The notes under the pieces were generated by a model. That model saw only the letters and a program-made list of their open reading frames with translations, ran no database searches and was not told where the DNA came from. Below, piece after piece: positions 465 to 55,992 of a stretch of DNA of 64,000 nucleotides. The DNA lies in IMG/VR virus record IMGVR_UViG_3300008120_000241, positions 12,843 through 76,842 of that record, one strand, 5' to 3'. The stretch is from a virus. The position numbers and the translations under genes were made by a program. Position 1 is the stretch's first letter; each line of letters starts with the position of its first letter.

Positions 465-1247
465 ATGAAAATCATTATTACAGAAGAACAATATAAAAAA
501 CTATTTGAAATAGATTATAGAAATCTTGATGACATTATAAAGTTTGGTGAGTTTTCTGAATATTTTAAAAAAGACGATTTAAAAAAAATTAATAAGTTTT
601 TACTTCTTATTAGAGATCTTGGCGTTGTTAATATGTTCCAAGCAGGTGATTTTCTTTTAATGTCAATTGATTATTTTAAAGACTTTATGAGACTGAAATC
701 ATATGAAAGGGATTTTGATGAAGATATAATTTCTGAAATTGAGGAGATATTACCTGATATTAAAAACATTATGGTAGGTGCTGGAATAAGTTATGTTGAA
801 AGTAAAGGTAATGAGATTACACCAAAAAGTGTTGGAAGAGCAATTAGAATGCTTACTTCAAGTATAATGAAATATTATATGTCACAAAATTTGCCAAATG
901 TTAATGAATCATATGATAAGGAAAAAAACTTTTTGAGAAATCATTTTGGTTTTGATTTTTCTGATAAAATCAAACTGATAACCTCAACTTATGATGTCCC
1001 AACTAGTTTTGATGTTTGTCTTAGCTCCCTTAGTACGAGTCTTTGGTTAAATTATTGGGGTCCGATGTTTCTTTTTGAGCTTGATGGTGTAAATTATCTT
1101 TATCAAGATAGAGGTGATTTTGAATTTTTTTTTGGTGACGATTGTGATACCTACACTGATAATGAAATTCCGGAACGACTCGGAATAGCCGAAATGGGAT
1201 TCAAATTTTCTGATATAATTGATATATATTTTGATGAACAAATGTAA
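465..1247 (+). CDS. Hypothetical late protein with MKIIITEEQYKKL leader
   Basis: 260-aa ORF; TATTTAT at 452-458; N-terminal leader shared with other ORFs. Confidence 0.75.
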   Translation: MKIIITEEQYKKLFEIDYRNLDDIIKFGEFSEYFKKDDLKKINKFLLLIRDLGVVNMFQAGDFLLMSIDYFKDFMRLKSYERDFDEDIISEIEEILPDIKNIMVGAGISYVESKGNEITPKSVGRAIRMLTSSIMKYYMSQNLPNVNESYDKEKNFLRNHFGFDFSDKIKLITSTYDVPTSFDVCLSSLSTSLWLNYWGPMFLFELDGVNYLYQDRGDFEFFFGDDCDTYTDNEIPERLGIAEMGFKFSDIIDIYFDEQM

Positions 1248-1255
1248 TTTTTTAT

Positions 1256-1263
1256 TATATTTG
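1256..1263 (+). promoter_or_regulatory. Representative host-type Bacteroidota -7 promoter element TAnnTTTG
   Basis: Also at 4137 (+) and 24330, 25391, about 25968, 29216, 31839 (-), all before non-structural genes. Confidence 0.65.
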
Positions 1264-1267
1264 TATT

Positions 1268-1495
1268 ATGAATTTTATTGAATCCGAAAAGTTTTTATTG
1301 AACTTGACTGTTGGTGAAGGTTATAATAATGTGACCGTTGTTAAAAGAACCCCCAATAGAATATATCTATCAAATGACAAAATTGTCCACATTAAGAAGG
1401 GAAATGGTTTTAAATACCTGGACGCAAAAGGTTTGTCAATTAAACAAATCCTAAGAGATATTGAAGGTTATTTGGTGTATTTAAAACATTGTTAA
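1268..1495 (+). CDS. Small hypothetical protein
   Basis: 75 aa; TATATTTG (Bacteroidota -7 type) 4 nt before ATG. Confidence 0.65.
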   Translation: MNFIESEKFLLNLTVGEGYNNVTVVKRTPNRIYLSNDKIVHIKKGNGFKYLDAKGLSIKQILRDIEGYLVYLKHC

Positions 1496-1578
1496 TGAAA
1501 CGTAAAATCCAATTTATTTTTTTGTGGTTATCTTATAAGTTACCAAAGAAAAAAAGAAAAACCATTTGGGAATTATAA
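1495..1578 (+). CDS. Putative 27-aa basic/hydrophobic microprotein MKRKIQFIFLWLSYKLPKKKRKTIWEL
   Basis: ATG overlaps the upstream stop (TAATG), fills the gap; not in the ORF track. Confidence 0.4.
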   Translation: MKRKIQFIFLWLSYKLPKKKRKTIWEL

Positions 1579-1600
1579 AAATAATTCGTATTATTGTTTT

Positions 1601-53432: not shown

Positions 53433-53894
53433 ATGTTAAAATGGGATATATTTGAAAGGTTGTTTACATCGGGTTTAGCTATGTTACAACCTTTTATTAT
53501 TTATATGACCATTGGTGATCAATTTGCCATTTCACACTCCTGGAACACATCTTTACAACCCCTATTCATAATCACAAACGCCCTTGTTAGTTTTTTCTTT
53601 TTTAAATTGGAGAAATGGAGAATTCCAGCTTTACTTCTTTTGTTATTGACGGCATTCCCGGTTTGTGACTATTTTTGGTTACACAATATTTTTGCCATAT
53701 TATTTTTTATATTTTCTGGTATTTCATTGTGGTCAATTAAAAGGATGAGGTATTACTTTTTCATATTTTTATGTTCACTTATTTTTATTTTTAATGGGTT
53801 ATTTTGGTCGGAAACGTTTGGGATTATAACCCTCGCAACCTATCACTTACATTTATTATTGTACAGATATTTATTAAGTAAGAAAAGACACTAA
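53433..53894 (+). CDS. Polytopic membrane protein
   Basis: 153 aa, about five hydrophobic segments. Confidence 0.7.
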   Translation: MLKWDIFERLFTSGLAMLQPFIIYMTIGDQFAISHSWNTSLQPLFIITNALVSFFFFKLEKWRIPALLLLLLTAFPVCDYFWLHNIFAILFFIFSGISLWSIKRMRYYFFIFLCSLIFIFNGLFWSETFGIITLATYHLHLLLYRYLLSKKRH

Positions 53895-54607
53895 TGGATA
53901 TTAAAAAAATAATAGAGGAAGTTTTAAATGAGGTAAATTCAAGTAGGTACGCTGGTTCCTATAACGGACCATTAACGATGGGTGAGATTGATTGGAAAAA
54001 AGAAACATTAGGTCCTTTTACCACAAAAGTTTCTGATTTTTTTAATGCTGAACTTCAATATGATAGTTATGATGGGTCATTAGATTCACATAAGAAAGAT
54101 AGAAAAAAATTGGAGGCTAAATCAAAAAAAATATCAAAATACAATAAAACCCACCATCAGTTAAATGATGATGATGGTAATCCGATTAATCCAACACCCG
54201 GTAAAGGTCAGAAAATCGTTCCAATAGTTAGAGAATGGGTTGAGTTAGATGAAATATCATTAACTGAAGATTTGGCTGTTTGGTTTGGGAAAAAGAAAAA
54301 ACCAAAAGGTTCTTCACAACCAAAAGGTCCGTGGGTTAATATCTGTAGAAAAGTTGATGGTAAACATCCCCCTTGTGGTAGACCAGATACCAGTAAGGGT
54401 GGTTATCCAAAATGTAGAGCTGCCGGTGTTGCTGGAAAAATGAGTGATTCTGAAAAAAGGTCAGCTTGCCAACAAAAAAGAAAAGCTGAGAAAAAAGACA
54501 CACAAACAGGTAAAGGTCAAAAACCGGTTATGGTTTCCTACAAACCAAAAAAGACTCAAAATGAGTCTTTGGATATTTTAATACAACAAATATTATCGGT
54601 TATTTAA
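53894..54607 (+). CDS. Late protein with leader and basic Cys-containing domain
   Basis: MDIKKIIEEVLNE; EDLAVWF..WVNIC..PCGR..YPKCR; TATTTAT at 53868-53874. Confidence 0.7.
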   Translation: MDIKKIIEEVLNEVNSSRYAGSYNGPLTMGEIDWKKETLGPFTTKVSDFFNAELQYDSYDGSLDSHKKDRKKLEAKSKKISKYNKTHHQLNDDDGNPINPTPGKGQKIVPIVREWVELDEISLTEDLAVWFGKKKKPKGSSQPKGPWVNICRKVDGKHPPCGRPDTSKGGYPKCRAAGVAGKMSDSEKRSACQQKRKAEKKDTQTGKGQKPVMVSYKPKKTQNESLDILIQQILSVI

Positions 54608-54612
54608 CAATT

Positions 54613-55518
54613 TTAGTCTAACATTAATATTTTATATTCACATTTCCAACCTTTATAGTGTTTTAATTCACCTTTACCTACTCTATGTAATACACTATCG
54701 TTTAGATTATGTTCCACACAAAAATTTCTCAAAGAAGTTAGATTGAATACATCCCCATTTGGTGATGTTAATTTATAAACTCTTTTTTCAATTGTTTCAT
54801 TTTTACTTCTGTTTAAAACTATTAAACCTTTTTGTACATTTCTTTTTATTTTTTTTCTGGCAGAACGCAAAGTATTTTGATTAATATTATTCTGTCTACA
54901 ATATTCGTGTAAATTTTTGACAACGGTTTCATTTAAATTTTCATCATAAATTACAAATTCATCTTTAGTGTCTAATTCCTGTATTTTATTTTTTAAATTA
55001 GTAATTTCACAATTTAATTTAGACTCTTCTGATTTACCATTAAATAATAAAGAAATAAAGTTCTGCCAAATATCAACACTTGTTTCATTTCTTCCGATAT
55101 TAGCAGCATAACAAGTTAAAACAACATTGTCTTTAGTATAACCTTTAAATCTATCTAATCTATCTATCGAAGGTTGTTGTGGGTGTTTATTTGTTAGTGT
55201 TGGGATTAAAGGAACATTAAACCAATAACATAATCCACCTTGATTTTGATAAACTTCAAGAATTTCATCAACAGTTAATGTATTTTCAAAATTTCTTCTT
55301 TTTGTTGAATGTAATAAATCGTTAGCCCATAATCTCAATTTTCTTTCTTGTGATTTTAGTTTTTCTTTTTCAATATTTTTTGGGTCTTGTCTGTACTTTT
55401 TTTTGTTGATTCTACCTCGTAATTTGTGGTGATATTTACACAATAAACTTTTTTGTGAAGTATAAAATTCACTTAATGGTTTTAGTTCATTACATTCTTT
55501 ACAATACTTTGTTTCCAT
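54613..55518 (-). CDS. Putative HNH-type homing endonuclease
   Basis: CKEC..K..F..C finger; QGGLCYW..PSIDRLD..KGYTKDNVVLTC..AN; C-terminal SLRNFC..HNL..HYKGW DNA-binding-like repeats. Confidence 0.72.
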   Translation of the reverse strand: METKYCKECNELKPLSEFYTSQKSLLCKYHHKLRGRINKKKYRQDPKNIEKEKLKSQERKLRLWANDLLHSTKRRNFENTLTVDEILEVYQNQGGLCYWFNVPLIPTLTNKHPQQPSIDRLDRFKGYTKDNVVLTCYAANIGRNETSVDIWQNFISLLFNGKSEESKLNCEITNLKNKIQELDTKDEFVIYDENLNETVVKNLHEYCRQNNINQNTLRSARKKIKRNVQKGLIVLNRSKNETIEKRVYKLTSPNGDVFNLTSLRNFCVEHNLNDSVLHRVGKGELKHYKGWKCEYKILMLD

Positions 55519-55563
55519 ATACATAAATATGTGGAATTTGGGTAAAGTGTCTAAATCTGTAAA

Positions 55564-55992
55564 TTATTTTTTTGTCCACTTACCACCTTTTGAGTTATAT
55601 CTCTTAACTGCGGCACCATTACAATAAGCACTAGGACATACATCATAACGTTGTCTAGCCCAAGCTAAAGATTGTTGCCATAATTTTTTATTTGTTGCAA
55701 CATTCTTTTTTTTCTTACCCTCCTCAATCATATCTTCATCATATGAATCATCACCTTTAACTTCATTCATAATAAAATCAAAAACCTGATCCATATTGTT
55801 TTTTGCTTCAGCGATATGATCTTGAGCCCAATCGTGACCATTTTCCAAAATGGATTCAATTTGATTTTCATCCATTTCAAGTAACATTTCACATTGTCTT
55901 TTCATTTGTTCAAGATTTTGAAAAAACATATATCTATTTGACCCGTATTTCTCCTCTAAGAGGACTTTTTTTATAATTCTATCCAATTCCAT
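55564..55992 (-). CDS. Late protein with leader and basic C-terminal motif
   Basis: MELDRIIKKVLLEE; PSAYCNGAAVKRYNSKGGKW. Confidence 0.7.
   Translation of the reverse strand: MELDRIIKKVLLEEKYGSNRYMFFQNLEQMKRQCEMLLEMDENQIESILENGHDWAQDHIAEAKNNMDQVFDFIMNEVKGDDSYDEDMIEEGKKKKNVATNKKLWQQSLAWARQRYDVCPSAYCNGAAVKRYNSKGGKWTKK

Follow-up and report, generated by a model that had tools for sequence, protein, structure and literature searches.

In phage P1, an N-terminal region of the Dar proteins directs these accessory proteins into the head for co-injection. Internal proteins from T-even phages are diverse and have only a capsid targeting sequence (CTS) in common (PMC3012670, PMC9026906), and in T4 the N-terminal propeptides of 10–20 residues known by this name are removed by the protease gp21 (PMC5694885, PMC9026906), which is reported to cut Alt at ITE-6 and LTE-619 (PMC5694885). 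For the giant phages, about 50 different head proteins have been reported in SPN3US (PMC7411985), the propeptides of phiKZ contain redundant cut sites (PMC5694885, PMC9026906). The packaging of the P1 Dar antirestriction proteins via their N-terminal region has been mentioned as well (PMC9024508). The window analysed here, 64,000 nt corresponding to bases 12843–76842 of a single 76.8-kb virus contig of approximately 30% G+C (IMG/VR record IMGVR_UViG_3300008120_000241), encodes a T4-type head module together with several families of short leaders on otherwise unrelated proteins, which probably represent a greatly expanded version of the T4 CTS. Coordinates refer to the window, unless given as contig positions.

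The likeness to T4, in which gp21 removes the CTS of IPI, IPII, IPIII and Alt, lies in an S77 protease encoded within a T4-type head module, in short N-terminal tags ending in (L/I)-x-Glu on otherwise unrelated, fast-evolving proteins, and in a capsid protein whose N-terminal region ends in L-x-E|A, as in gp23. Whereas the T4 CTS has approximately 6–10 residues and is found on about 4–6 proteins, the tags described here are helices of 13–23 residues in several interchangeable classes, about 50 genes per genome are tagged, and tags are reiterated inside multi-module open reading frames (ORFs); their cleavage and packaging are predicted from the genes alone. The phiKZ-like giant phages (phiKZ gp175, SPN3US gp245) are alike in their jumbo size, in a number of head proteins (about 50) similar to that of the tagged proteins here, in the processing of many of these after Glu, as predicted here, and in propeptides with redundant sites (PMC9026906, PMC5694885, PMC7411985). 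They differ in a small P3 residue (S/A/G-x-E), which is hydrophobic here as in T4, and in long propeptides, which can reach 100 residues or more and which the reviews do not describe as one conserved portable motif. The Dar system of P1 shares the N-terminal head targeting, but belongs to another capsid lineage, lacks a gp21-type cleavage logic, and involves few proteins and no portable motif family. The principle is known for T-even phages, and what is new here are the leader families, their length, interchangeability, reiteration in polyprotein-like ORFs, and scale.

The first-pass annotation of the window had listed about 20 proteins with a shared N-terminal (I/L)xE leader, and all of the N-termini that it quoted were found at their positions. 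Within the first 14 residues, [LI]xE was present in 42 of the 99 contig ORFs, against 18.9 ± 3.4 in random internal windows (maximum 30 in 2000 draws), and a two-site pattern was seen in 27 ORFs where 8.2 ± 2.1 were expected. This excess traced to defined motif families and not to a general (I/L)xE rule; the bare rule was too weak on its own, with a small N-terminal excess outside the defined classes, and was rejected as a criterion, while the conserved positions themselves are indeed hydrophobic-x-Glu (h-x-E). Hidden Markov model (HMM) searches of six-frame translations and unbiased clustering of the first 32 residues recovered the same groups. Scanning with HMMs, a check put forward with the list, returned two strong families on the contig, here called G1 and G2, whose extent the list had understated, as 12 G1 copies and three further G2 copies lie upstream of the window.

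The G2 family (MKKxIxLTESDLxRIVKRVIxE) has eight copies on the contig, five of them in the window with HMM E values of 1e-10 to 1e-12, and three just upstream. Two are located between the protease and scaffold genes of the head module, these being the leader MKKIVRLTESDLTRIIKRVISE (43883–43948, + strand, E 1e-11) of a 346-aa HExxH protein (43883–44923) and that (44936–45001, +, E 5e-12) of a 125-aa acidic protein (44936–45313). The others precede a 177-aa protein (24381–24914; leader 24381–24446, +, with the heptamer TATTTAT 19 nt upstream) and a 167-aa protein (28231–28734; leader 28231–28296, +, TATTTAT 26 nt upstream), these four being identified by both HMM and alignment, while an 88-aa protein (7979–8245) has the shortened form MKNLTEQDITRIVQKIINE (7979–8035, +, HMM E 4e-12). 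The 12 contig copies of G1 (MNLQENIRRILREE) all lie within the 8.4 kb before the window, with two of the 12 internal to longer ORFs. Short G1-like leaders of the form IIKKVLxEE, which grouped with G1 and G2, are found on a 237-aa protein (53894–54607; MDIKKIIEEVLNE, 53894–53932, +) and on a 142-aa protein (55564–55992; MELDRIIKKVLLEE, 55951–55992, −), the latter with orthologues and a structure model.

Further classes were represented by fewer copies. The MKIIITExQY class, conserved in relatives, has window copies on a 260-aa protein (465–1247; MKIIITEEQYKKL, 465–503, +, TATTTAT 13 nt upstream) and on a 183-aa protein with a DUF6576 domain in Pfam (8982–9533; MKILITESQYQKLMEN, 8982–9029, +). 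Also conserved in relatives are the ISESDRxSIL class, present as ISESDRQSIL in the leader MRNKITISESDRQSILSMY (4930–4986, +; relatives at E 4e-7 to 1e-4) of a Pfam-matched CarboxypepD_reg beta-sandwich repeat protein extending to 6465, and the INQMKFLFGY..VISEQ class, present in the leader INEINQMKFLFGYKPGKVISEQ (6516–6596, +; relatives at E 2e-11 to 1e-7, one on a 416-aa protein) of a 153-aa protein (6516–6977). A pair sharing RIKSLM, with a mutual match at E 0.009 and one relative at 3e-5, consists of the leader MLLNEIIRIKSLMNLNE (10077–10127, −, TATTTAT 13 nt upstream) of a soluble PAP2-like phosphatase recognised by Pfam (9522–10127) and of MKLNKLTENINRIKSLMSLVE (12963–13025, +) on a 143-aa protein (12963–13394). 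The possible leaders MNKIITEELINQIRLMNY..LLEQ (13397–13477, +), on a 542-aa PG_binding_1 protein with hydrophobic segments, and MKDLISEIQTMRNRMGL..ILSE (15048–15131, +), on a 1084-aa protein, are unproven: these two listed N-termini, like those at 3821 and 43417 that we added, were not above chance and had no significant relatives in our searches, with the 15048 leader having one weak relative at E 0.038.

The leaders are short basic amphipathic helices of 13–23 residues with a core of D/E-h-x-x-I-h-[KR]-[KR]-h-h-x-E, most of them with two h-x-E sites and variable elsewhere along the helix. In an alignment of 18 sequences, the invariant G2 columns were L7, E9 and E22, with both Glu residues at the P1 position of h-x-E sites and L7 at P3, while in G1 the columns I7, I10 and E13 were invariant and L3 and L11 nearly so, E13 closing an h-x-E site with L11 at P3. 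The P3 residue of the conserved sites was always L, I, V or M. At the nucleotide level, the invariant T8, S10 and R18 of G2 use 4–5 codons each, and 41% of the codon pairs for the same amino acid differ; selection acts at the peptide level. Upstream DNA was common to only two of the eight G2 copies, and together with the varied codons this speaks against a DNA or RNA element and against recent duplication.

A matching site in the gp23-type capsid protein had been proposed from the window alone, and proved to be invariant in 81 sequences: the first 60 residues (46913–47092, +) are almost invariant and end in LINE|A, followed by a variable stretch, after which the alignment with the N-terminal part of mature T4 gp23 begins. 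The usual ends of the G2 leaders (VINE, ILNE or IINE) resemble this site. In the head module, the proteins at 40668, 43109 and 45488 rank with those of highest h-x-E density on the contig, which is weakly consistent with a T4-like degradation of core proteins, and the first of these, a 242-aa protein (40668–41396, +) with 6.6 sites per 100 aa and TATTTAT 21 nt upstream, is a candidate core protein.

The claim that the leaders are fused to unrelated payloads was borne out, with the sequence after residue 32 homologous in 0/56 G2 pairs and 0/90 G1 pairs. Payload domains recognised by Pfam include PAP2, PG_binding_1, CarboxypepD_reg repeats and DUF6576, and the 43883 protein contains a recognisable HExxH motif, while no family in Pfam or PHROGs covered any of the leaders. 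Matches to POTRA_2 at 7979 and phrog_4247 at 465 were below threshold and were disregarded, and an ESM Atlas look-up of 44936–45313 returned only unnamed clusters and matches with TM values below 0.5. Hydropathy analysis detected no hydrophobic segment in any leader, and hence no Sec or Tat signal features (a hydrophobic h-region after a basic n-region, for Tat with a twin-arginine motif ahead of it); true Sec signals, which look different from the leaders, sit on the non-leader genes 24924 and 28768. Hydrophobic segments resembling transmembrane helices were absent from all leader-bearing proteins except 13397–15025 and 15048–18302, with the PAP2-like protein (9522–10127) having none.

In an AlphaFold2 model of the 55992 protein (26 orthologues, mean pLDDT 67), the leader was predicted as a separate helix at residues 3–15 followed by a loop, with a disordered linker at residues 80–95 around a second invariant h-x-E-G site. 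Its orthologues in 25 relatives have a short, intermediate or full G2 leader, then a linker of 2–16 residues, and then a conserved RYMFFSNL domain. The protein and its orthologues also share h-x-E-G-[RK]-K-K as an invariant motif, placed within a disordered acidic linker preceding a basic C-terminal domain, and this motif may be a second processing site of the 55564–55992 protein.

The gp23-type capsid protein (606 aa, 46913–48733, PF07068 E 2e-74) is 42–46% identical to its closest cultured counterparts, from Microcystis phage Mel-JY01, Flavobacterium phage immuto and Rhodothermus phage RM378. IMG/VR contains no fewer than 598 related stretches, the best 80 having 73–91% capsid identity and including complete or near-complete genomes of 272–321 kb, and 13 studies yielded lake and freshwater metagenomes with near-identical DNA. 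Based on the head module, the distant cultured capsid proteins, these relatives and the lake metagenomes, the phage is a member of an abundant, uncultured freshwater clade of T4-like jumbo phages. In a complete 296-kb relative, clustering of N-termini assigned leaders to 51 of 376 ORFs (14%), in one cluster of 28 ORFs that merged the G1, G2 and IIKKIL types, with remainders homologous in only 2/756 pairs, and a second of 23 ORFs (MKIIITExQY and MKKFLITEEEKSRILGMH). Ten of the largest leader proteins of this relative gave three Pfam matches on two proteins, comprising two below-threshold leucine-rich repeat families on one and PG_binding_1 on the other, and no replication or metabolic enzyme was detected among the ten.

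Profile searches of 1.84 billion protein representatives at 50% identity, with versions of the leader alignments of 42 residues, detected G2 in 8,826 proteins at E <= 1e-3, while in a word-indexed search at 90% identity the clusters numbered more than 4,482 for G2 and more than 978 for G1. The notion of an N-terminal tag was largely sustained, as about 139 of the 150 top-ranking representatives had their best G2 match starting from residue 1, and had to be widened for internal and occasional C-terminal copies. Among the top matches, 72 additional G2 copies started beyond residue 50, some of these at the extreme C-terminus, and 82 of the 120 top G1 matches held 2–5 copies spaced 100–300 residues apart, with these counts of internal copies being inflated by the higher scores of multi-copy proteins. 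One 676-aa protein, for example, has G1 tags at residues 2, 110, 229, 336 and 479, and in at least eight relatives a homologue of the 53894 protein runs in frame through KKTNEN-MKRIINLTESDL, a G2 tag, into a variable C-terminal domain. The tag is therefore a reiterated element that marks module boundaries, and not purely an N-terminal leader. In metagenomes, the same modules occurred both fused and split within single 90% identity clusters, and this coexistence would be accounted for if the tag is cleaved, because fusing neighbouring tagged genes would then cost nothing.

In two ORFs upstream of the window, a G1 tag again lies inside the protein, at residue 153 (contig 4078–4926) and residue 171 (contig 7049–7942), and what follows the tag in the latter is paralogous to the adjacent single-module G1 genes (SLKQTLID...). 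Stop-codon recoding was considered as a cause of the C-terminal tags and rejected for one inspected case, where the downstream frame was full of stops, indicating a truncated remnant and not read-through.

According to the first-pass annotation, nearly all leader genes follow TATTTAT. In the window, this sequence was found 7–26 nt before 10 of the 17 leader-gene starts and also before the head genes 40668, 42393 and 57644, and it was absent ahead of the ClpC-like, FKBP, peptidase and Sec-signal genes. TATTTAT is the most enriched upstream heptamer of the 296-kb relative, where it precedes 108 of the 376 genes (9-fold enrichment), usually 11–13 or 19–24 nt before the ATG. It was present before 36 of the 51 leader genes (71%) compared with 72 of the 325 others (22%; Fisher p = 2e-11), and also before the TerL, portal, protease, scaffold and capsid genes. 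This pattern suggests that TATTTAT may be a late promoter, with the late status of the leader genes being judged only from the upstream motif that they share.

The head module of the window includes the large terminase TerL (35896–37624), a gp20 portal protein with an intein and HNH domain (37666–40644, Portal_T4 PF07230 E 7e-73), a prohead protease of the T4 gp21 type (Peptidase_S77, 42393–43097, +, PF03420 E 1.6e-22), which is the presumed processing enzyme, and the gp23-type capsid protein. At the position of gp22, as judged by gene order compared with phage immuto and by site density, lies a very acidic scaffold-like protein with 25 h-x-E sites (45500–46876, +), the presumed dock for the basic leaders. 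The gp21 precedent on which the first-pass annotation had drawn thus holds as far as homologues of the protease, portal and capsid proteins and the published Alt sites (ITE-6 and LTE-619; PMC5694885) are concerned.

Taken together, we consider it somewhat better than an even chance (probability roughly 0.55) that the leaders are a targeting and cleavage module like the T4 CTS, greatly expanded and diversified. During prohead assembly, the helix would dock its cargo protein on the highly acidic scaffold or core, and after closure of the shell the gp21-type protease (42393–43097) would cut after the conserved h-x-E, freeing the payload inside the head for delivery into the next host. As each module would have its own tag and cut site, neighbouring tagged genes could be separate or fused and still give the same end products. 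This proposal is supported by the presence of the T4-type head genes, the invariant h-x-E positions, the match to LINE|A of the capsid protein and the TATTTAT sequence common to the head genes, and by the number of tagged proteins per genome (approximately 50), which is comparable to the number of head proteins of SPN3US. The exchange of leader variants among the 55992 orthologues, their variable linker and the separate N-terminal helix predicted by the model lend further support, as do the selection on the peptide, the unrelated payloads without signal peptides, the two G2 genes placed between protease and scaffold genes, and the coexistence of fused and split modules.

Several observations weigh against this proposal. 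Searches by tblastn with a 26-aa leader and with whole leader proteins (43883–44923, and the G1 protein of contig 6576–7046) against 50,697 GenBank phage records, which include many T4-type phages of Escherichia, gave no meaningful match at E <= 10, and no cultured GenBank phage was found to carry the tags. The leaders thus differ from the T4 CTS in having no detected sequence similarity to it, and because they match no GenBank phage sequence, T4-types included, such similarity is unsupported. Their length moreover exceeds the 10 residues of the IPIII CTS, and for internal and C-terminal tags T4 offers only the C-terminal propeptide of Alt as a partial precedent. Most G1 genes have no TATTTAT of their own, the tripeptide h-x-E occurs often in this AT-rich proteome (2.4 per 100 aa), and some payloads would suit parts of the virion that are external or act on membranes, such as the PG-binding domain accompanied by hydrophobic segments and the beta-sandwich repeats, the latter suiting internal cargo equally. 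Finally, capsid loading, cleavage and ejection of the leader proteins are deduced from sequence data exclusively.

Other explanations account for part of these data. The helix may dock to another common partner, such as the phage ClpC-like unfoldase, a chaperone, a tail or baseplate site or a host factor, without any loading into the capsid. The free position of the tag within the protein (N-terminal, internal or C-terminal) would allow for this, the window encodes a ClpC-like ATPase of the phage, several of the payloads have an extracytoplasmic or structural look, and nothing ties the leaders directly to the capsid. We nevertheless regard such docking as rather unlikely, since it explains neither why the invariant residues are placed exactly at P3 and P1 of a gp21-type site matching the capsid LINE|A, nor why G2 genes are found inside the head module and a promoter-like motif is common to leader and head genes. 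A motif acting merely as a processing signal, at which the prohead protease or another phage peptidase splits polyprotein modules in the cytoplasm without targeting, would agree with the beads-on-a-string proteins that have 2–5 tags 100–300 aa apart and with the fused and split forms within the same 90% identity clusters, and candidate enzymes exist in other peptidase-like genes (27150–28205, and the HExxH protein 43883–44923). Yet most copies are at residue 1 of single-module proteins (about 139/150), where there is nothing to separate, and a conserved amphipathic helix of 13–23 residues far exceeds what a cut site needs, which makes a role limited to processing quite improbable.

The shared sequence could also reflect events at the DNA level, being a recombination joint, a mobile cassette of promoter and start (like the PeSL elements of T4) or a recent duplication, with a peptide that has no function. 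Copies at contig positions 11325 and 11822 indeed have a near-identical upstream non-coding block that includes GAGTATTTAT, and the genes are arranged in tandem arrays. However, synonymous sites vary freely while the amino acids are fixed, other copies have unrelated upstream DNA, internal copies lack a promoter context, and the motif is kept across 8,826 families at 50% identity, so that an origin at the DNA level is highly improbable and largely excluded by the codon data. Returning to the CTS-like module, we propose with some reservation, at slightly less than even odds, that this clade of uncultured freshwater jumbo T4-like phages uses a few interchangeable helix tags as a universal address-and-cut label, giving a very large and rapidly exchangeable injected arsenal, including polyproteins cut apart in the prohead, far beyond that of T4.

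Several features of neighbouring genes were also noted. Paralogous small proteins with a Sec signal (24924–25361, −, and 28768–29184, −) are convergent with the G2-tagged genes 24381–24914 and 28231–28734, respectively, and a similar secreted paralogue adjoins a G2 gene in the 296-kb relative (280211–280705 and 280740–281156). In the portal gene, the intein precedes the Portal_T4 domain, with Intein_splicing at residues 107–478 and HNH_3 at residues 220–262. The TerL gene appears to be split by a frameshift into ORFs 35896–36630 and 36605–37624, overlapping at 36605–36630. Contigs from four independent lake metagenome runs have 47 extra bases between 36628 and 36629, an insertion that by arithmetic puts both ORFs in one frame, with 28 of the inserted bases visible in read ends without an in-frame stop, and TerL of the 296-kb relative is undivided (590 aa); the split is therefore a deletion in the assembly or strain and not biological.

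The ClpC-like AAA+ ATPase (phrog_4871, E 3e-200; 29255–31797, −) consists of two adjoining ORFs (31504–31797 and 29255–31474) and shares 62% identity with a homologue from the 296-kb relative. Directly 3′ of the capsid gene, 48828–49508 and 49558–51279 show DNA-binding or nuclease-like features, with a ROS/MUCR match barely above threshold and a REase_MTES_1575 match below it, and may be an insertion of the homing endonuclease type; the 53894-type gene is nearer to the capsid gene in relatives than in the window. No tRNA or tmRNA genes were found in the window (1–64000) using ARAGORN.

No G2 was detected by profile in Flavobacterium phage immuto, Microcystis phage Mel-JY01 or RM378, nor in two huge-phage records, the only match being a weak one at E 3e-4 in LR756508, and a literature search for LTESDL found no paper. 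The cultured Flavobacterium phage vB_FspM_immuto_3-5A, without G1 and G2, has N-terminal motifs of its own on unrelated proteins: MENFDLKKFLVENKLT on four proteins, two of these directly upstream of TerL, MKKSQLRxIIKE on three, and MKKQILSEQFxRMQxLAGIITES on two, several of which contain L-x-E sites. This phage offers an experimental entry point for testing the leader principle.

Even without a link to the capsid, the leaders represent a portable peptide found repeatedly at module boundaries, with up to five copies per protein, and that is matched by neither Pfam nor PHROGs. If the capsid-loading role holds, the CTS principle of T4 would be extended to long, modular and interchangeable tags that work in polyprotein cargo, and natural tags of 13–23 residues would become available for packaging foreign proteins into phage heads. 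Thousands of orphan proteins, with 8,826 families for the LTESDL tag alone, would then be candidate effectors of host takeover or anti-defence, and one motif would mark the injected proteome of globally distributed, uncultured jumbo phages.

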